Virus record (IMG/VR): IMGVR_UViG_3300017917_003521
Strand: one strand, 5' to 3'
Length of the DNA: 64,000 bases
Source of the DNA: a virus
Lineage: Duplodnaviria > Heunggongvirae > Uroviricota > Caudoviricetes
How positions within the stretch are numbered: the first letter of the stretch is position 1; the number at the start of each line of letters is the position of its first letter. A program made the translations under genes and the position numbers. Below the pieces are notes generated by a model. The model had not been told where the DNA came from. It ran no database searches and saw nothing but the letters and a program-made list of their open reading frames with translations. Positions 31,056-62,169 of this stretch are shown here, piece after piece.

Positions 31056-32969
31056 ATGAGTAACATTTTAGATTTTATGTCAAATTATTGGTGGATTGGT
31101 GTAATCCTCCTTTGTGTAGTAATGTATCGATTCATTCTACGAGTATTCTTCGGTCTTGTGATTGTACCAGAAGATAAAATTGGTTTAGTAACCAAAAAGT
31201 TTGTTCTTTGGGGTGAAAACATGGAGTTAACAGGTGACCGAATCATCGCAACTAAAGGTGAAGCTGGTTATCAAGCAGAAACACTATCACCTGGTTTACA
31301 TTGGTTTATGTGGCCTTGGCAGTATTCAGTGGATATGCAATCATTCATTGTTATCCCTGAGGGTCATATTGGTCTAGTATCTGCTAAAGATGGTTCTGTT
31401 CCAAAAACAGGTCGAATCTTGGGTCGTAGTGTTGAGTGTGAAAACTTCCAAGATGCAATGGCTTTCTTAAACAACGGTGGTCAAAAAGGTAGACAAGCCG
31501 CATTTATTCCAAATGGTGTTTATAAGATTAATACACACTTATTTGAAGTATCTGCTGTTAAACAGGCAACTATTCAAGAGAATATGGTTGGTATTGTTAC
31601 TACTCTTGATGGTGAGCCACTTGAGAATGGACAAATTGCTGGTAAAAACGTAGAGGCTCATAACAACTTCCAAAACTTTGACCAATTCTTAGAGTCTGGT
31701 GGTAACCGTGGTCTACAACAACAAGTTATCTTGGCTGGTTCTTATAACTTAAACCCTTGGGCTGTTCAAGTTGAAGAAGTTCAAATGACTGAAATTCCTA
31801 TTGGTCACGTTGGTGTTGTTATTTCTTATGTTGGTGAAGATGGTGTTGACGTAACTGGTGCTAACTTCAAACACGGTAACTTAGTTGGTAAAGGACAAAA
31901 AGGTGTTTGGGCTGAGCCGCTTGGACCTGGTAAATACCCTGTTAATAAATACACTAACAGAGTTGAGTTAGTTCCAACTACTAACCTTGTATTGAATTGG
32001 GCATCTGCTCGTACAGAGTCTCACAACTTAGATAAGAACTTGAATACAATCACAGTTCGTTCTAAAGATGGTTTCCCATTCAACTTAGACGTGTCTCAAA
32101 TTATTCACATTCCAATGACAGAAGCACCAAAAGTAATCGCTCGATTTGGTAATATGAATAACCTTGTATCTCAAGTACTTGAGCCTACAATTGGTAACTA
32201 CTTCCGTAACTCAGCTCAAGACTCTGATGTTATTGCTTTCTTAACAACTCGTAAAGAACGTCAAGACTCAGCAAAACAACATATCTCTAAAGTATTAGAT
32301 GAATATAACGTTTATGCTGTTGATACTTTGATTGGTGATATTGTTCCACCACAAGAGTTGATGAAAACTTTGACTGACCGTAAAATTGCTCAAGAGCAAG
32401 AGGTGACTTTTGAAACTCAAAAGAAAGCCGCTATGTCACGTCAAACATACGAGAAAGAGACAGCTATTGCTGATATGCAAGCAGAGGTTGTTAAAGCTGA
32501 CCAAGGTGTTCAAATTGCTGAAAGACACGCTGACGCTTCTGTTAAGAAAGCAACTGGTGATGCTCGTTCAGTTAAAATTAACGCTGAAGCACAAGCAGAA
32601 GCTACCAAGTTGAAAGCTGAAGCAGATGCTACAAGAACATCACTTATTGGTAATGCTGAGGCTGAAGCTATCCTTTCTAAGGGTAAATCTACAGCAGAAG
32701 CTTACAAACTAGCCGTTGAGGCGATGGGTAAAGAAAACTTTACAACATTTAAGGTTACCGAAGAGATTGGTAAGAACGGTGTGAAAATCATGCCTGACTT
32801 GTTAATCAATGGAGGTGGACAAAGCGGGAACGGTGCAATAGATGGATTATTGGGAGTTCAAATTCTTAATATGATGGGAAACCAAGTTAAGACTTTGAAC
32901 GACACAACAGTGAAGTCGGTAGAAAATTCTGATGAGCCTGTTGAAGACTCTAAAAAGAGTAAGAAGTAA
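31056..32969 (+). CDS. SPFH/band-7 (flotillin-like) membrane protein with C-terminal coiled coil
   Basis: N-terminal TM 'WWIGVILLCVVMY' and an SPFH core '...LIGDIVPPQELMKTLTDRKIAQEQ'. The C-terminus is a long A/E/K-rich coiled coil, followed by an intrinsic terminator at 32985-33018. Confidence 0.65.
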   Translation: MSNILDFMSNYWWIGVILLCVVMYRFILRVFFGLVIVPEDKIGLVTKKFVLWGENMELTGDRIIATKGEAGYQAETLSPGLHWFMWPWQYSVDMQSFIVIPEGHIGLVSAKDGSVPKTGRILGRSVECENFQDAMAFLNNGGQKGRQAAFIPNGVYKINTHLFEVSAVKQATIQENMVGIVTTLDGEPLENGQIAGKNVEAHNNFQNFDQFLESGGNRGLQQQVILAGSYNLNPWAVQVEEVQMTEIPIGHVGVVISYVGEDGVDVTGANFKHGNLVGKGQKGVWAEPLGPGKYPVNKYTNRVELVPTTNLVLNWASARTESHNLDKNLNTITVRSKDGFPFNLDVSQIIHIPMTEAPKVIARFGNMNNLVSQVLEPTIGNYFRNSAQDSDVIAFLTTRKERQDSAKQHISKVLDEYNVYAVDTLIGDIVPPQELMKTLTDRKIAQEQEVTFETQKKAAMSRQTYEKETAIADMQAEVVKADQGVQIAERHADASVKKATGDARSVKINAEAQAEATKLKAEADATRTSLIGNAEAEAILSKGKSTAEAYKLAVEAMGKENFTTFKVTEEIGKNGVKIMPDLLINGGGQSGNGAIDGLLGVQILNMMGNQVKTLNDTTVKSVENSDEPVEDSKKSKK

Positions 32970-35568: not shown

Positions 35569-36666
35569 TTAACCAACGGTCAAGAAGATTTTACGGGACA
35601 TTCTATCCACTGAAAGAACTTTCACTTTGATATCTTGTCCTTGTGAGAACCTTTTACCAAGTTTTTCCATTTCTGAAGTGTGGATAAGACCAACAGTTTC
35701 GTCATCAAGGTTCACTAAAGTGCCAAATGCTTTGGTGTCTTTAACAGTACCTTCAATGATTTGACCATTTTTAATTGTGTCCCACAGGGTCTCTCTCAAG
35801 ATTTGAGTAAGGATAATTTTATCCTTAATAACCTCTTTAATGTAGAATTCAATTTGGAATCCTGGTGAGATTGAAGATAACTTCTCAGCCCAGTCTGGAT
35901 TAACATTTGCTTTATGGATCATTCCAGTTAAGCACTCATTGAACTCAACAAAGACACCAAATGGAGTTGTACCGGTAACGTGACCACTGTACACTTTGTT
36001 GTACTCCAATTCCTTAATTGCTTCAGGAATTAAAGTTTGAAGATACTTACGTCTTGAAACGATATAAGTTCCTTCGTTTTGGGCATAAGATTCAATCATA
36101 ACATTGAATGTTTGTCCAACAATTGAGTTAGGATCGTGAAGCTTGTTAATACCAGCAAGTGTATTTGGCATAAAGCCTGGTAATGTTACACCACCGTGTG
36201 TTAACTCAACATCATAGCCAGCTGGGTTAAGACTCTTAACCGTAACCATTACTGATTGACCTTCTTCTAAGGATTTTAAGTTAGCGTGTGCTCTTGACTC
36301 ATATAGAGAAGAAACACTTCCTTTAATCATAAAATTATCTTGATTAATATCAGTGATTAATACATCAATTAAGTCACCTAAATTAAGGTTCTTGAAGTAC
36401 TTAGATTCACTAACTCTATCCTCTATTCTAACGTCATCTTTGTATCCTGGTACACTAAATATAAATTGGCCTGCTGACTTACCAACATATTTAGCAGATA
36501 CAACTTGACCTTTCTCAGGGATTGCAATTTCATCAAGGTTATAAAGCTTTAGCATTTCTTGATACTCTTTTGTGTTTTTGTTTCGAGTACCTTTTTTTGA
36601 AAATTTAACTTCTTCAAAGACGTCCATTAAATCTTCATTACCGATTGTGTTTTTTATCATATTCAT
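35569..36666 (-). CDS. ribosomal protein S1-like protein (four S1 RNA-binding domains)
   Basis: Repeated S1-type OB folds, e.g. 'GQVVSAKYVGKSAGQFIFSV' and 'GQIIEGTVKDTKAFGTLVNLDDETVGLIHTSEM...GQDIKVKVLSVDRMSRKIFLTV', parallel the S1 repeats (G.v.G.V....GaFV.l.....GLvH.Se). Confidence 0.55.
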   Translation of the reverse strand: MNMIKNTIGNEDLMDVFEEVKFSKKGTRNKNTKEYQEMLKLYNLDEIAIPEKGQVVSAKYVGKSAGQFIFSVPGYKDDVRIEDRVSESKYFKNLNLGDLIDVLITDINQDNFMIKGSVSSLYESRAHANLKSLEEGQSVMVTVKSLNPAGYDVELTHGGVTLPGFMPNTLAGINKLHDPNSIVGQTFNVMIESYAQNEGTYIVSRRKYLQTLIPEAIKELEYNKVYSGHVTGTTPFGVFVEFNECLTGMIHKANVNPDWAEKLSSISPGFQIEFYIKEVIKDKIILTQILRETLWDTIKNGQIIEGTVKDTKAFGTLVNLDDETVGLIHTSEMEKLGKRFSQGQDIKVKVLSVDRMSRKIFLTVG

Positions 36667-55854: not shown

Positions 55855-56028
55855 TATAAAATAAATCAAAAGAGACAAAAACTTTTTAATATATAAACAA
55901 ATGAGAACATTTAATACACATAAACATTTTAGTAAATCGAATAAGTGGTTTAGCAACCAGTTCGGTACTGAAAGTGTATTGCTCTCAAATAAGATGTAAC
56001 AAATCTATTTATACAAGACAATATTCAA

Positions 56029-56067
56029 AAGTCCGAACTTAACAAAAAGTTCGGACTTTTTTGTTTT
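56029..56067 (+). terminator. strong hairpin plus T-tract immediately upstream of first tRNA array
   Basis: AAGTCCGAACTT / AAGTTCGGACTT perfect 12-bp stem, 7-nt loop, then TTTTTTGTTTTATATGG. Confidence 0.55.
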
Positions 56068-56071
56068 ATAT

Positions 56072-56158
56072 GGTGTCGTTATTGTTAACGGAGAGTCGCA
56101 AGACGAGCATCTGGCTCTGTGAAAGCCAGGGTACGGGTTCGAATCCCGTACGACACCC
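56072..56158 (+). tRNA. aberrant tRNA-like gene (87 nt) with His-type GUG anticodon arm, encoded G-1:C73 and extra nucleotides in the D-region
   Basis: Hand fold. G-1 sits on the GTGTCGT/ACGACAC acceptor with discriminator C. The 3' two-thirds are perfect: TGGCT-CTGTGAA-AGCCA, then GGGT, then ACGGG-TTCGAAT-CCCGT. About 30 nt lie between the acceptor and anticodon stem, against about 20 in a canonical tRNA. Confidence 0.4.
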
Positions 56159-56401: not shown

Positions 56402-56483
56402 ACAGGTACTCATTGGTGTGACCAGCCGGTTCCAACCCGGTAATTCGTAAGAGTGGCTGTAGGTTCGAGTCCTACTACCTGTG
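56402..56483 (+). tRNA. aberrant tRNA-like gene (82 nt) with Trp-type CCA anticodon loop and 17-nt variable region
   Basis: ACAGGTA/TACCTGT acceptor. Anticodon arm CCGG-TTCCAAC-CCGG, T-arm GTAGG-TTCGAGT-CCTAC. The D-region is non-canonical. Confidence 0.4.
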
Positions 56484-56498
56484 CTAAAAGACAAACCT

Positions 56499-56569
56499 AC
56501 GGGTGTGGTGAAATGGTATCATGACGGTCTCCAAAACCGTTGTTCTTGGTTCGAGTCCAGGCACCCGTG
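56499..56569 (+). tRNA. tRNA-Trp(CCA)
   Basis: ACGGGTG/CACCCGT acceptor. Anticodon arm ACGGT-CTCCAAA-ACCGT, T-arm CTTGG-TTCGAGT-CCAGG. Confidence 0.65.
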
Positions 56570-56614
56570 CAAAATGATTAAGATGATGAAAACTAAGTTG
56601 AAATATAAACGCTA

Positions 56615-56657: not shown

Positions 56658-56730
56658 GATTCCGTAGCTCAATTGGTGGAGCTTCCGGCTTTTAACCGGA
56701 AGGATGTGGGTTCGAGTCCCACCGGGATCA
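56658..56730 (+). tRNA. tRNA-Lys(UUU), canonical type I
   Basis: GATTCCG/CGGGATC acceptor, A73. D-arm GCTC-AATTGGTG-GAGC. Anticodon arm TCCGG-CTTTTAA-CCGGA, the same loop as E. coli tRNA-Lys. T-arm GTGGG-TTCGAGT-CCCAC. 73 nt. Confidence 0.8.
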
Positions 56731-56739
56731 CTAAATATT

Positions 56740-56826
56740 GATTCTGTCGCTTAGTGGCTATAGCAACTGGCTTTTAACCAGTAGAGATAATGTTCTCAAC
56801 CGTGGGTTCGAGTCCCACCAGGATCA
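56740..56826 (+). tRNA. type-II-like tRNA (87 nt) with Lys anticodon UUU, A73 and 19-nt variable arm
   Basis: GATTCTG/CAGGATC acceptor. Anticodon arm ACTGG-CTTTTAA-CCAGT. Variable arm A-GAGA-TAATGT-TCTC-AACC. T-arm identical to the canonical Lys gene. Confidence 0.55.
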
Positions 56827-56832
56827 CAAAAC

Positions 56833-56916
56833 ACTCCTGTCGCTCAGAGGCCGAGAGCAACTGGCTTTTAACCAGTAGACGAAAGTCCATCGTAGGTTCG
56901 AATCCTACCAGGGGTA
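56833..56916 (+). tRNA. type-II-like tRNA (84 nt) with Lys anticodon UUU, A73 and 15-nt variable arm (GAC-GAAA-GTC)
   Basis: ACTCCTG/CAGGGGT acceptor. D-arm GCTC-AGAGGCCGA-GAGC. Anticodon arm ACTGG-CTTTTAA-CCAGT. Variable AGACGAAAGTCCATC. T-arm GTAGG-TTCGAAT-CCTAC. Confidence 0.55.
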
Positions 56917-56921
56917 CAAAT

Positions 56922-57006
56922 GACTCCGTTTCCGTAGAGGCCGAACGGTTCTGACTCTTAATCAGATGACGAAAGTCCACCGTGGGTTCGAATCCCACCG
57001 GGGTCA
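56922..57006 (+). tRNA. type-II-like tRNA (85 nt) with Lys anticodon CUU, A73 and 15-nt variable arm (GAC-GAAA-GTC)
   Basis: GACTCCG/CGGGGTC acceptor. Anticodon arm TCTGA-CTCTTAA-TCAGA. Variable TGACGAAAGTCCACC. T-arm GTGGG-TTCGAAT-CCCAC. Confidence 0.55.
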
Positions 57007-57009
57007 CAA

Positions 57010-57092: not shown

Positions 57093-57641
57093 TTGTGTAT
57101 GAAAGAAGAAATAATTAAACTAATAAATGAGGGTTTTACATATGATGATATTACTAAAAAATTAGGTTGTTCTAAAAGTACAATATCTTATCATTGTAAT
57201 AAATTAAATTTAAAAAGTAAAAGTAAAAATATAGATGTAAATAGTGAACTTGTAAATAAAATTAACGAATTGTATAAATGTGGAAATAGCTCTTATACAA
57301 TATCAAAAATTTTAGGAATTTCAAAAAGTACAGCTCTTAAATATATTAGTAAAGAAAATATAAGGACTAAGAAAAAAACTAAAACTAAAAAGGATAAGTC
57401 CGAATACATAATGAGATGGAAGAAAAATCTTAAAAAGAGTTTAGTTGAATACAAAGGATCTAAATGTGAAATTTGTGGATATGATAGATGTATAGAGGCT
57501 TTAGAATTTCATCACTCTGATCCAAGTAAAAAGGATTTTTCAATATCTACAAAATTATTTGGAATTGAAAAAATGAAAAAAGAAGTAGATAAATGTTTAC
57601 TGTTATGTTCTAATTGCCATAGAGAAAAACATTATTTATAA
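57093..57641 (+). CDS. HNH homing endonuclease with N-terminal HTH repeats
   Basis: C-terminal 'CEICGYDRCIEALEFHHSDPSKKDF...LLCSNCHREKH' is an HNH motif. It lies between the two tRNA arrays. Confidence 0.6.
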   Translation: MCMKEEIIKLINEGFTYDDITKKLGCSKSTISYHCNKLNLKSKSKNIDVNSELVNKINELYKCGNSSYTISKILGISKSTALKYISKENIRTKKKTKTKKDKSEYIMRWKKNLKKSLVEYKGSKCEICGYDRCIEALEFHHSDPSKKDFSISTKLFGIEKMKKEVDKCLLLCSNCHREKHYL

Positions 57642-57649
57642 TAAAATTA

Positions 57650-57779
57650 GGGGATGTAGCTCAGTGGTAGAGTTTAAAATATCTCTTTTGAGGTTTTACC
57701 TTGAAAAAGTGTTGATTAAAAGAGTTACTTCGTTTGAATTGAAATCAAAAGGTCGTTGGTTCGAATCCAACCATCCCCG
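57650..57779 (+). tRNA. tRNA-like gene with 59-nt insertion between D-arm and anticodon stem; type-I scaffold, anticodon UGA, G73
   Basis: 5' part GGGGATG-TA-GCTCAGTGGTAGAGT. 3' part TTTGA-ATTGAAA-TCAAA, AGGTC, GTTGG-TTCGAAT-CCAAC, CATCCCC-G. The acceptor pairs perfectly. The 59 nt at 57674-57732 form their own hairpin (CTCTTTT...AAAAGAG). Confidence 0.4.
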
Positions 57780-57822: not shown

Positions 57823-57964
57823 TAGAAACAAAGAATAAAAAATTAATATATAATAAAGTTATGAAAACAATTATGCTTACATCGAAGTCGTCAAGTAGTC
57901 GCTCGTCAAAAACGAGTGAGGTTCGATCGTATTCATAATAGTCGTATAAATAAGATATTATGTA

Positions 57965-58000
57965 AACCCTTCGAACCAAAAGTTTGAAGGGTTTTTTGTT
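57965..58000 (+). terminator. strong hairpin plus T-tract immediately upstream of second tRNA array
   Basis: AACCCTTCGAAC...GTTTGAAGGGTT stem, then the same trailing motif TTTTTTGTTTTATATGG as at 56056. Confidence 0.55.
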
Positions 58001-58084: not shown

Positions 58085-58168
58085 GGAGAAGTAATTTGGC
58101 CGGCGCCAAACACAGTCTTGAAAACTGCTGGTACCTTCGGGTATGGGGATCGACACCTCACTTCTCCG
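58085..58168 (+). tRNA. tRNA-Ser(UGA), type II, G73
   Basis: GGAGAAG/CTTCTCC acceptor. Anticodon arm ACAGT-CTTGAAA-ACTGC, the same loop as E. coli Ser UGA. Variable arm TGG-TACC-TTCG-GGTA. T-arm TGGGG-ATCGACA-CCTCA. Confidence 0.6.
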
Positions 58169-58173
58169 CAACC

Positions 58174-58256
58174 GGAAGGAGTCCGAATGGACGAGGACAC
58201 CGCCTTGAAAGCGGCTGGGTCGAAAGGCTTTGGGGGTTCGATTCCCTCTTCTTCCG
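58174..58256 (+). tRNA. tRNA-Ser(UGA), second copy, type II, G73
   Basis: GGAAGGA/TTCTTCC acceptor. Ser-like D-arm TCC-GAATGGACGA-GGA. Anticodon arm ACCGC-CTTGAAA-GCGGC. Variable arm with GAAA loop. T-arm GGGGG-TTCGATT-CCCTC. Confidence 0.55.
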
Positions 58257-58261
58257 CAACT

Positions 58262-58347
58262 GGAGAGTAAACTAGTCAGGGTACTAGCACCGCCTGCTAA
58301 GCGAGTGGCACGGTAAAACGTGTGAGTTTCGAATACTCTGCTCTCCG
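58262..58347 (+). tRNA. tRNA-Ser(GCU), type II, G73
   Basis: GGAGAGT/GCTCTCC acceptor. D-arm CTAG-TCAGGGTA-CTAG. Anticodon loop CTGCTAA. Variable arm CACG-GTAAAA-CGTG. Confidence 0.55.
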
Positions 58348-58354
58348 CTAAATT

Positions 58355-61098: not shown

Positions 61099-62169
61099 AT
61101 GAAGATAAACGAAAAATTTCTAGAAAGCTATTTAAATAGCAATTCACCAACCGGTTTTGAGTATGAACTAGGTGGTCAAAAAGTTTGGATGGATTATATC
61201 TCCAAGTTTGTAAACAAGGTAGACATTGATAACTATGGCACTGCATATGGTGTTATGGGTAATATGAACTCTGATTTCAAAGTGGTAATTGAAGCACACT
61301 CTGATGAAATCTCTTGGTTTGTAAATCACATTGATTCAAATGGCTACATTAAAGTAATTAAAAACGGTGGTTCTGATGCTCAGATTGCTCCTTCAATGAG
61401 AGTAACACTTTGGGGTGAAAAAGGACCAGTAGATGGTATCTTTGGTCATCCAGCAATTCACATTCACTATCGTAAAGATAAAGTAGACTTAGATTCTATT
61501 TTTATTGATGTTGGTGCTGCTAATAAAGATGAAGTAATTGAAATAGGTATTAAAGTAGGAACTGTAGTTACTTTCAAAGATGGTTTTATGAAGTTGAATA
61601 AAAACTACTACACTGGTCGTGCTTTAGATAACCGTATTGGTGGTTTTATGATTGCTGAAGTTGCTCGTAGATTAAAAGAAAAAGGCAAAGAACTTCCTTA
61701 TCAATTGTATATTGTTAACTCAGTTCAAGAAGAAATTGGTCTTCGTGGTGCTGAAATGATTGCTCAAACAATTAAACCAAATGTGGCAATTATTACTGAT
61801 GTTTGTCATGAAACATCTGCTCCTTGTTACACTGCTTCTAAAGAAGGTGAATCGGTTGCTGGTCAAGGTGGTGTTATTACAAGAGCTCCGGCCGTTCATA
61901 ATAAACTAAGAAAGTTAGTACTTGATGTTGCTAATGATAAAGAAATTCCTTTTCAATTGTCGGCTTCTTCTCGTTCAACAGGAACAGACACAGAATCATT
62001 TGCTTATTCAAATGGTGGTGTTCCTTCGGTTTTGGTTTCACTTCCTTTGAAGTATATGCACACAACTTGTGAAACTTGTCATAAAGACGATGTTGAAAAT
62101 GTTATTAAGTTAATCTATCACACACTCTTGAGTATACAAGAAAATCATAATTTTAAGTATAACTCTTAA
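61099..62169 (+). CDS. M42-family (TET/FrvX-like) aminopeptidase
   Basis: 'FKVVIEAHSDEISWFVNHI' is the M42 H.DE.G-type motif. The length fits, and a terminator follows at 62176-62201. Confidence 0.55.
   Translation: MKINEKFLESYLNSNSPTGFEYELGGQKVWMDYISKFVNKVDIDNYGTAYGVMGNMNSDFKVVIEAHSDEISWFVNHIDSNGYIKVIKNGGSDAQIAPSMRVTLWGEKGPVDGIFGHPAIHIHYRKDKVDLDSIFIDVGAANKDEVIEIGIKVGTVVTFKDGFMKLNKNYYTGRALDNRIGGFMIAEVARRLKEKGKELPYQLYIVNSVQEEIGLRGAEMIAQTIKPNVAIITDVCHETSAPCYTASKEGESVAGQGGVITRAPAVHNKLRKLVLDVANDKEIPFQLSASSRSTGTDTESFAYSNGGVPSVLVSLPLKYMHTTCETCHKDDVENVIKLIYHTLLSIQENHNFKYNS

Follow-up and report, generated by a model that had tools for sequence, protein, structure and literature searches.

Phage tRNAs with lysine anticodons and a long variable arm form a widespread and apparently undescribed class

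Reviews confine the long variable arm to the tRNAs for leucine, serine, selenocysteine and, in bacteria, tyrosine, and they list few exceptions, the nev-tRNAs and the allo-tRNAs. Here we analyze a 64,000-nt stretch of DNA from a virus of the class Caudoviricetes (IMG/VR record IMGVR_UViG_3300017917_003521; hereafter the window, with positions counted from its first letter), which has a GC content of about 29%. In its tRNA array an ordinary tRNA-Lys gene is followed by three tRNA genes that carry lysine anticodons together with a long variable arm (V arm). The nematode nev-tRNAs (PMC3333845, PMC4033280) resemble these genes in joining a class-II shape to class-I anticodons, but they bear leucine identity elements, are charged with leucine so that GGG is read as Leu, are weakly expressed and correspond to rare codons. 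The phage tRNAs, in contrast, have identity elements that match their anticodons, correspond to a very common codon and possess an arm unlike that of tRNA-Leu or tRNA-Ser. Assignment to a nev-tRNA-like class was rejected because the genes lack the identity elements of Leu and Ser and because only one codon is used more often than AAA, which ranks second. The tRNA-Sec-like allo-tRNAs (Mukai et al., PMC5389517), which are found in metagenomes and some phages, also combine a long arm with varied anticodons other than those of Ser and Leu. However, their acceptor/T stems are of 8/4 or 9/3 type, their identity is that of Ser or Ala, and only a single case with a Lys anticodon is on record. With 7/5 acceptor/T stems, A73 and short arms, the window genes do not belong to that group.

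Among canonical tRNAs, bacterial tRNA-Tyr shares with the window genes A73, U35, a Ser/Tyr-type D loop and a 3-bp V stem followed by several unpaired nucleotides, but it has a GUA anticodon, a tail of typically 3 nt and acceptor stems unlike the ones found in long-arm Lys tRNAs. A change of tRNA class with the amino acid left unchanged is known from the type-I tRNA-Leu of Streptomyces (PMC6614811) and from the class-I tRNA-Tyr of archaea and eukaryotes, although in these cases the change took place in cellular lineages and ran the other way, the arm being lost. On the other hand, the tRNA-Lys(UUU), as well as the tRNA-Thr/Asn, of phage T5, which neutralize the PARIS nuclease AriB, and other phage tRNAs able to evade anticodon nucleases (PMC10802454, PMC12409363, PMC10264068), are phage-encoded isoacceptors of a nuclease-preferred tRNA, are likewise located in arrays, and have been proposed to keep translation running after the host tRNA-Lys has been cut; their isotypes overlap with those found here (Lys UUU, Thr UGU, Asn GUU). 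As Lys UUU/CUU genes in a phage array, the window genes also fit the description of phage-encoded isoacceptors of a nuclease-targeted tRNA. The T5 tRNAs, however, are ordinary class-I molecules whose resistance is due to single-base changes in the anticodon stem (positions 39 and 41), whereas the window tRNAs differ in architecture by the extra arm and a class-II D loop. No description of 7/5 long-arm tRNAs for Lys or for other class-I isotypes in phages was found in the full-text literature, most subscription journals lying outside its coverage.

The four Lys genes are separated from each other by 5-9 nt (Table 1). All of them were called by ARAGORN and exceeded the gathering score (29 bits) of the Rfam tRNA model RF00005, which aligned the extra 10-15 nt of the three long-arm genes as an insertion in the variable region. 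The first gene is an ordinary tRNA-Lys with a 5-nt variable loop (AGGAU), A73, a U4.G69 pair and an alpha3/beta1 D loop. For the other three, both the ARAGORN drawings and unconstrained RNAfold predictions gave a five-arm cloverleaf, consisting of a 7-bp acceptor stem, the D arm, a 5-bp anticodon stem, the V hairpin and a 5-bp T stem, followed by A73. Their 7-nt anticodon loops are CUUUUAA, CUUUUAA and CUCUUAA, and the T loop is GGUUCGA. Their variable regions measure 19, 15 and 15 nt and contain a hairpin, departing from the 4-5 nt loop of class-I tRNA-Lys, and both the base-paired V stem of 3-4 bp and the D-loop geometry are those of class II. The gene at 56740 differs from the ordinary copy by a single letter in the acceptor strand (GAUUCUG vs GAUUCCG) and has an identical T arm, a U4.G69 pair and an alpha2/beta2 D loop; its V loop, UAAUGU, recurs in 5 other phage tRNAs. 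In the gene at 56833 the acceptor stem includes A1-U72 and U3.G70, and the D loop, AGAGGCCGA, is of class-II type (alpha2/beta3); the gene at 56922 has U4.G69, 3 nt between the acceptor and D stems and, in the ARAGORN drawing, again the D loop AGAGGCCGA.

These genes had been folded by hand in an earlier inspection of the window (the original prediction), and the coordinates, anticodons, A73 and V-arm sequences that it gave for the three long-arm genes were confirmed by ARAGORN, RF00005 and RNAfold, as was the V arm shared by the last two genes (GAC-GAAA-GUC in both). Neither ARAGORN nor the covariance-model fold placed a different triplet in the anticodon. The agreement of the three programs, together with the covariation of the V stem described below, rules out an artefact of folding or of misplaced gene boundaries. 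Two details had to be amended. A G-U pair at 4:69, claimed for all four genes, is present as U4.G69 in three of them, the gene at 56833 having U3.G70 instead; and the first two long-arm genes, described as near-identical through the D and anticodon arms, agree fully in the anticodon arm but show no more than similarity in the D arm, with 77% identity over the whole genes.

We scanned IMG/VR with a pattern composed of a UUU anticodon loop, a gap exceeding that of a class-I tRNA, and a T loop, which matched at least 120 loci (loci and contigs of this and of other sets are denoted below by L numbers). Among the matches listed, 92 of 120 loci held a Lys-anticodon tRNA of at least 81 nt according to ARAGORN (108 genes), on contigs that range from 5.8 kb to 619 kb. 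An ordinary Lys tRNA lies beside the long-arm one in 60 of the 92, and only the long-arm type was present in the other 32 within the stretch examined. When the same pattern was applied to cellular genomes (596 Gb), only 12 of 120 loci among the matches listed held a real long-arm Lys tRNA, which excludes an ordinary feature of cellular tRNA-Lys. Four of these 12 lie in arrays of 8-34 tRNAs within at most 8 kb and look phage-derived, and two are probably archaeal intron-containing genes. A very similar long-arm UUU tRNA (gcccctgtcgtctagcggccgatgac...) occurs in three metagenome-assembled genomes of Actinomycetota (L212, L230 and L231, from Frankiales and Mycobacteriales), as a single copy outside tRNA arrays, either alone or with one distant tRNA-Glu (L230); it could be a trait of a cellular lineage or part of an integrated element.

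The arm design of the window genes is also found in cultured phages, namely Xanthomonas phage X1, Caulobacter phage CcrColossus, whose tRNA cluster has the long-arm type as its only Lys tRNA, and Ruegeria phage V10. Together with the IMG/VR scan, these carriers rule out a trait confined to the megaphage clade of the window. GenBank lists the long-arm genes of cultured phages as "tRNA-Lys" of 82-88 nt, without comment. At the annotation level only, further matches correspond to tRNA-Lys in XacN1 and RcXuper and to an unannotated stretch in DSS3P8, and a long-arm Asn gene of Cellulophaga phage phi4:1 is labelled "tRNA-Pseudo". Long-arm Lys tRNAs are thus a widespread and largely phage-restricted family, with members both in IMG/VR and in cultured phages. 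The suggestion that the window encodes an undescribed device agrees with the outcome of the literature search, but what it described is not the peculiarity of one array: it is a widespread class, already annotated as tRNA-Lys in GenBank.

The design of the arm was analyzed in a parsed set of 115 long-arm Lys tRNAs, of which 106 are unique. In nearly all 115 the variable region measures 15-19 nt, and it follows one plan: one unpaired nucleotide, a stem of 3-5 bp, a loop, and then 3-4 unpaired nucleotides. The loop is a GNRA tetraloop in 62 of 108 cases (GAAA 44, GUAA 11, GCAA 7), and the 3' tail is 4 nt long in 69 and 3 nt long in 28, CAUC, CAAC and CACC being its commonest sequences. One plus four unpaired nucleotides add up to the five that a class-I variable loop has, so that the hairpin can be seen as inserted after nucleotide 44. 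Most members have a D loop of class-II type (alpha2/beta3 with G9 or C9, as in tRNA-Ser), whereas canonical phage Lys tRNAs have an alpha3/beta1 D loop with A9. About one sixth of the members, on the other hand, keep a class-I D arm into which the hairpin has simply been inserted, and the sharing of one arm by two types of D arm implies at least two routes to it.

To avoid selection by fold, pairing was tested at fixed positions in all unique tRNAs of one length. In the 15-nt class all three fixed pairs were present in 32 of 35 tRNAs (shuffled mean 0.9, maximum 5), and in the 17-nt class all four in 18 of 25 (shuffled mean 0.25). A hairpin of at least 3 bp was present in 98 of the 106 unique tRNAs, compared to 39 after shuffling. 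In an alignment of 25 sequences, every pair of the V stem had changed on both sides, with GC, CG, AU and UA pairs all represented, and 98.4% of the cells of the whole structure were paired, compared to 32-50% when the partners were slid by 1-3 columns; as these 25 sequences were chosen by fold, the unbiased figure is that of the fixed-position test. The covariation of the V stem, the mostly GNRA loop and the fixed flanks across very distant phages point to purifying selection on the hairpin.

The only nucleotide-level relatives of the window among 50,697 phage records were LR745206 (635 kb) and LR756502 (642 kb), with 73-79% identity, which we take to be Lak-related "huge phage" genomes assigned to Bacteroidota hosts. 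Both carry the same three long-arm genes (UUU, UUU, CUU) in the same order, at 75-79% DNA identity. In LR745206 they follow a canonical Lys gene, as in the window; the stretch of LR756502 that was examined gave no call for a Lys tRNA of the canonical type. Orthologs of each single gene were also recovered: those of the ordinary gene are 92% (L008) and 85% (L001) identical, those of the gene at 56740 are 95% (L008), 91% (L055) and 85-86% (L001 and L002) identical, that of the gene at 56833 is 95% identical (L008), and those of the gene at 56922 are 90% (L001) and 76-79% (L031, L070, L087 and L055) identical. The long-arm paralogs of the window, by comparison, are 70-78% identical among themselves and 64-68% identical to the ordinary gene, and their nearest neighbours among about 1200 tRNAs are all other long-arm Lys tRNAs. 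As orthologs of a given paralog are closer to it than the paralogs are to each other, the three genes represent old lineages that have been maintained and not recent accidents. Their recurrence in the same order in the two huge phages, together with the covariation of the V stem, places the feature far beyond chance.

Lysine identity in bacteria resides in the anticodon triplet, with U35 and U36 as determinants, and in A73 (PMC9976931). All three long-arm genes of the window have this set, UUU or CUU with A73, and A73 is present in 101 of the 115 family members. In comparisons inside one contig, long-arm Lys tRNAs resembled the canonical Lys tRNA most closely in the acceptor strand (3.5 of 7 nt), followed by co-resident Leu (2.95), Tyr (2.7), other class-I (2.5) and Ser (1.7) tRNAs. 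The arm was also compared with those of co-resident class-II tRNAs: that of tRNA-Ser has a stem of 4-7 bp and a 3' tail of about 1 nt, in molecules with mostly G73, that of tRNA-Leu has a tail of 1-2 nt, and that of tRNA-Tyr consists of 1 nt, a 3-bp stem and a 3-nt tail. The geometry of the long-arm Lys tRNAs is therefore nearest to tRNA-Tyr and unlike that of Ser or Leu. Of the tyrosine features, the window genes show A73 and U35 and an arm resembling that of tRNA-Tyr; they have neither G34 nor A36, and their tail measures 4 nt instead of 3 nt, so that partial recognition by TyrRS may occur.

The original prediction had offered two readings of these genes, a structurally disguised Lys isoacceptor or a tRNA mischarged with Leu or Ser that would recode AAA and AAG, and it would have been undone if they were simply tRNA-Ser or tRNA-Leu genes. 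Neither assignment fits. The LeuRS of E. coli needs A73, an A15-U48 Levitt pair, correctly placed G18G19 and A20a (PMC9976931), and under these rules, from which those of the host may differ, the window genes do not qualify as tRNA-Leu, since they have A73 but G15:C48, and C/G or U at positions 20a/20b. Nor do they qualify as tRNA-Ser (G73, G1-C72/G2-C71), having A73, A-U or C-G at 2:71, V stems of 3-4 bp and a 4-nt tail. Recoding is made very unlikely by codon usage and by catalytic lysines: AAA is used at 6.1%, AAA and AAG together make up 7.9% of the codons, and AAA encodes the Walker-A lysine of an SbcC-like ATPase and the KxDG lysine of an NAD-dependent ligase. These codons thus mean lysine, and substantial misreading of them would harm every protein. 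The disguised-isoacceptor reading is accordingly the favoured one of the two, in view of the Lys anticodon and A73, the canonical-like acceptor stem, the arm that is not of Ser or Leu type, and the isotype-specific discriminators of other long-arm tRNAs (below). Judged by these identity elements, the long-arm genes of the window are likely to encode genuine lysine acceptors in a class-II-like body.

Long arms are not restricted to lysine. In the window itself, a long-arm tRNA with a CCA anticodon (at 56402) has A1-U72 and G73, matching the ordinary tRNA-Trp located immediately downstream, and a V region in which 1 nt precedes a 4-bp stem capped by a GUAA loop and 4 nt follow it; its sole Rfam match is a sub-threshold one to the tRNA-Sec model (29.7 bits), and LR745206 has no long CCA tRNA at the corresponding place. 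In the IMG/VR loci selected for long-arm Lys, among the matches listed, long versions were frequent for Met/CAU (47 normal, 11 long), Asn (35 and 9), Trp (34 and 9), Thr-UGU (22 and 7), Cys (13 and 6), His (37 and 5) and Ile-UAU (8 and 4). They were few for Arg (79 and 2), Gln (61 and 2), Phe (50 and 2) and Glu (46 and 2), and none was found for Asp (43 normal), Ala (32 normal) or Thr-GGU (23 normal). Each isotype retained its own discriminator base in these loci, with G73 in 9/9 Asn and 8/8 Trp, U73 in 6/6 Cys and C73 in 5/5 His; these isotype-specific ends indicate that the arm is not what dictates charging and, by analogy, provide the strongest argument on the amino acid of the long-arm Lys tRNAs. 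A pattern scan for Asp across all IMG/VR matched 60 places, which yielded 25 real long-arm tRNA-Asp genes, all with G73, whereas the Asn pattern yielded at least 111 real long-arm genes, in 106 of 115 loci among the matches listed. The contrast between these 25 Asp genes in all IMG/VR and the Lys (at least 108) and Asn (at least 111) genes rules out a long arm uniform across isotypes. A genome-wide property of a given phage is likewise ruled out, because in the Asn-selected loci, among the matches listed, Lys-UUU was normal in 50 cases and long in 3, which ties the arm to isotype and phage lineage and not to the whole genome. Long-arm loci also contain tRNAs with the CUA anticodon, resembling amber suppressors (viral L096, 1253-1333; L111, 1517-1597), and several unrelated contigs (L067, L076, L083 and L089) share a tRNA-Ile(UAU) of 92-94 nt whose long arm (…CGCCAGAUUAGCG…) is conserved.

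The role of the arm can be considered in the light of phage defence. tRNA-Lys(UUU) is cut by PrrC, RloC, AriB and a bacterial Schlafen (PMC12409363, PMC13056530). The targets of AriB further include Thr(UGU) and Asn(GUU) (PMC12409363), two isotypes with frequent long-arm versions, which fits a link to defence. We tentatively favour, with confidence a little short of even, the explanation that the long-arm genes encode working lysine isoacceptors whose arm is selected for evasion of such enzymes. A Ser/Tyr-type D loop, a short hairpin after nucleotide 44 and four unpaired nucleotides filling positions 45-48 would be combined in a tRNA that, by the identity rules, the host LysRS should charge through the UUU/CUU anticodon and A73, and that should read AAA and AAG as lysine alongside the ordinary copy. 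The arm would be kept because long-arm tRNAs may be poor substrates for proteins that recognize ordinary class-I tRNA-Lys, most plausibly the defence ribonucleases that cut its anticodon stem-loop (PrrC/RloC, PARIS AriB, OLD-type Toprim and Schlafen-type nucleases). The lysine-rich, AAA-rich genes of the phage could then stay translated after destruction of the host tRNA-Lys, and several diverged paralogs might broaden the protection. By analogy with the known nucleases, evasion as the reason for selection of the arm is a possibility that we hold to be somewhat less than probable. AriB cleaves between positions 40 and 41 (PMC12409363), only a few nucleotides away from the point where the arm emerges, and the P2 OLD nuclease cuts both strands of the anticodon stem and removes the anticodon arm. 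The presence of an ordinary Lys tRNA beside the long-arm one in 60 of 92 loci fits a backup role, and the maintenance of several diverged paralogs fits evasion, although it is no proof of it. The host-like U39-C40 is present in 58% of the long-arm Lys-UUU tRNAs and in 23% of the phage Lys-UUU tRNAs of normal length, a comparison confounded by phylogeny and by the E. coli-specific nature of the motif.

Several points weigh against this explanation. The documented escapes of phage tRNAs all use point changes in the anticodon stem-loop, and not extra arms (PMC12409363). Fourteen of the 115 long-arm Lys tRNAs carry U73, in most cases together with an acceptor stem of the form GGA... and a CCA that is part of the gene, and do not fit the lysine rules of E. 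coli; they occur in viral loci L003, L006, L017, L038, L052, L077, L094, L103, L116, L118 and L121 and in CcrColossus (L124, 2991-3080). PrrC can cut isolated anticodon stem-loops, so the arm might not hinder it, and class II synthetases such as LysRS approach the tRNA from the variable-loop side, so the arm could hinder charging. A Tyr-like body with A73 and U35, which are main tyrosine determinants, may be charged in part by TyrRS. Moreover, long-arm versions also exist for isotypes without a known dedicated nuclease, and the overlap with nuclease targets is loose, as most isotypes are targeted by something. A broader version of the explanation, which we consider doubtful, is that phages have repeatedly given a class-II-like disguise to tRNAs of class I, namely those for Lys, Asn, Thr, Met, Ile, Trp, Cys, His and Asp. 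A short GNRA-capped hairpin placed after nucleotide 44, in most cases along with a D loop of Ser/Tyr type, would then leave cognate charging and use by the ribosome intact while making the tRNAs resistant to tRNA-directed nucleases of immune systems, to toxins, or to an attack that the phage itself mounts on the tRNAs of the host.

Alternatively, the arm could be a neutral legacy, left when a class-II tRNA, most likely Tyr-like, was duplicated and its anticodon mutated, the arm being tolerated in a lysine tRNA without any special role. Such an origin would account for the Ser/Tyr-type D loop (alpha2/beta3, G9/C9), for an arm geometry closest to that of the co-resident tRNA-Tyr, and for the fact that a single change in a class-II anticodon yields the anticodon of most isotypes in which long arms are frequent (GUA to GUU, GUG or GCA; UGA to UGU; CAA to CAU or CCA; UAA to UAU). 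Lys UUU, however, is two mutations away from any class-II anticodon and yet among the most abundant long-arm types, whereas Asp, a single step from Tyr, is rare, with its 25 genes in all IMG/VR. Mere tolerance is also at odds with the covarying stem, mostly GNRA loop and fixed flanks (1 nt; 3-4 nt) in very distant phages, with the independent arrival of a second class, in which the D arm is that of an ordinary Lys tRNA and a hairpin has been inserted, and with the window genes having long-arm Lys, and not Tyr, Ser or Leu tRNAs, as nearest neighbours among the roughly 1200 tRNAs; we consider a neutral legacy unlikely. It is rather improbable, in our judgement, that the arm acts as a positive handle, either by marking phage tRNAs for a phage partner (a YqeY/GatB-tail protein, a modification enzyme or a repair enzyme) or, in a variant that we weigh jointly with it, by exempting them when the phage itself degrades the tRNAs of the host. 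GNRA tetraloops often serve in recognition, and just upstream of the window array lies a gene for a YqeY-like protein, related to the tRNA-binding tail of GatB, with homologs near the tRNA arrays of L008, L002 and L070 and of five unrelated viral loci (L051, L059, L073, L067 and L388). Nevertheless, no more than 8 of the roughly 290 viral loci held a YqeY-like gene, a count without control arrays free of long-arm tRNAs. The cultured carriers are very different phages in which no common candidate partner was identified, and the specificity of the long arm for certain isotypes within a phage lineage is a poor fit to a general tag for phage tRNAs.

The long-arm genes might also have no role in translation, acting as decoys that block tRNA-Lys-directed nucleases or tRNA-binding defence proteins, or being pseudogenes in decay. 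Overexpressed viral tRNAs were raised as possible inhibitors in the AriB study (PMC12409363), and the "tRNA-Pseudo" label in the Cellulophaga phage record would suit the second case. Intact stems with compensatory changes, canonical T and anticodon loops and the retention of A73 argue against both, as do the 32 of 92 loci and the CcrColossus cluster with only long-arm Lys tRNAs in the stretch examined, and conservation of 90-95% would not be expected of pseudogenes in phages that are about 75% identical overall; we regard this alternative as very unlikely. The least likely of the alternatives, in our view, is mischarging by a class-II-recognizing synthetase (most plausibly TyrRS, else LeuRS or SerRS), by which AAA and AAG would be translated partly as Tyr, Leu or Ser. 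The class-II body with A73, which belongs to the identity sets of both Leu and Tyr, and U35, which counts among the major determinants for tyrosine (PMC9976931), are compatible with it, as are the Tyr-like geometry of the arm and the precedent of the nev-tRNAs (PMC3333845, PMC4033280). On the other side stand the abundance of the codons at 7.9%, unlike those of the nev-tRNAs, the AAA-encoded catalytic lysines, G15:C48 in place of A15-U48 and the lack of A20a, both required by E. coli LeuRS, and a V stem of 3-4 bp with a 4-nt tail and A73, in place of the 4-7 bp, about 1 nt and G73 of Ser. The Lys tail, usually of 4 nt, also differs from the 3 nt of Tyr, and the other long-arm isotypes keep their own discriminators (G73 for Asn and Trp, U73 for Cys, C73 for His).

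The remainder of the array and its surroundings are included in Table 1. The order of the array is an odd His-like tRNA; Phe, His and Phe; the long-arm CCA tRNA; Trp; the four Lys; a gene with helix-turn-helix (HTH) and HNH homing-endonuclease domains; Arg; and three Ser. The 3' part of the HTH-HNH gene has about 70% DNA identity to HNH endonuclease genes of many unrelated phages, including Lak phages and phages of Yersinia, Klebsiella and Hafnia. Terminator-like hairpins upstream of the two halves of the array suggest that each half is a separate transcription unit beginning after a terminator; a sigma-70 promoter scan around the array was uninformative. The odd gene at 56073 owes its His-like look to a GUG anticodon on a 5-bp stem and C73. 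It has about 12 extra nucleotides in the D region, which fold as a GUC-GCAA-GAC hairpin, is called by ARAGORN only at relaxed stringency and scores 22 bits with the Rfam tRNA model, whereas its homolog in LR745206 is of normal length. Its extra hairpin is GNRA-capped like the long-arm V hairpins but located in a different arm. All three tRNA-Ser genes were missed by ARAGORN under default settings, and two of them were placed by Rfam on the tRNA-Sec model, just below threshold. Elsewhere in the window there are genes for unusual phage cargo, encoding an S1 RNA-binding domain protein, an M42 aminopeptidase and an SPFH/Band-7 protein.

Table 1. Positions of the tRNA genes, V hairpins and other features in the 64,000-nt window.
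Feature	Length	Position	Strand	Remarks
SPFH/Band-7 protein gene		31056-32969	+	
S1 RNA-binding domain protein gene		35569-36666	-	
YqeY-like protein gene	142 aa	54774-55202	+	PF09424 E=4.5e-16; phrog_1460 "tRNA amidotransferase"
Terminator-like hairpin		56027-56060		upstream of first array half
Odd His-like tRNA gene	86 nt	56073-56158		first in array
Long-arm tRNA, anticodon CCA	83 nt	56402-56484	+	ARAGORN, RNAfold
Ordinary tRNA-Trp		56499-56570		adjacent to long-arm CCA tRNA
Ordinary class-I tRNA-Lys(UUU)	73 nt	56658-56730	+	ARAGORN call Lys(ttt) 56658-56731; Rfam 71.8 bits
Long-arm tRNA, anticodon UUU	87 nt	56740-56826	+	ARAGORN call Lys(ttt) 56740-56827; Rfam 61.2 bits; RNAfold
V hairpin GAGA-UAAUGU-UCUC		56784-56797	+	after A56783, before unpaired AACC (56798-56801)
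Long-arm tRNA, anticodon UUU	84 nt	56833-56916	+	ARAGORN call Lys(ttt) 56833-56917; Rfam 59.7 bits; RNAfold
V hairpin GAC-GAAA-GUC (GNRA loop)		56878-56887	+	after A56877, before unpaired CAUC (56888-56891)
Long-arm tRNA, anticodon CUU	85 nt	56922-57006	+	ARAGORN call Lys(ctt) 56922-57007; Rfam 34.9 bits; RNAfold
V hairpin GAC-GAAA-GUC		56968-56977	+	after U56967, before unpaired CACC (56978-56981)
HTH + HNH homing-endonuclease gene		57093-57641	+	divides tRNA array in two
Weak tRNA-like sequence	70 nt	57709-57778		30 bits; after HNH gene
Terminator-like hairpin		57964-57994		upstream of second array half
Three class-II tRNA-Ser genes (UGA, UGA, GCU)		58085-58348		after tRNA-Arg(ACG)
M42 aminopeptidase gene		61099-62169	+	

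The long-arm Lys tRNAs thus look like an apparently undescribed, selected class of phage tRNA. A large, conserved and phage-biased family of class-II shape, serving lysine and several other class-I amino acids, would be a substantial addition to the long-arm tRNAs. It raises the questions of how LysRS and AsnRS, which face the variable-loop side, accommodate the arm, and of what selects it. As annotation pipelines sometimes label long-arm genes as pseudogenes, phage tRNA repertoires and analyses of codon compensation may have been miscounted. The long-arm scaffold could also serve in the engineering of orthogonal or nuclease-resistant tRNAs. The family bears on tRNA-cleaving phage defence, in which only escape by point mutation is known; should the repeated conversion of class-I tRNAs into a class-II-like disguise be true, it would represent a new structural class of tRNA and a mode of counter-defence that operates at the level of tRNA architecture.

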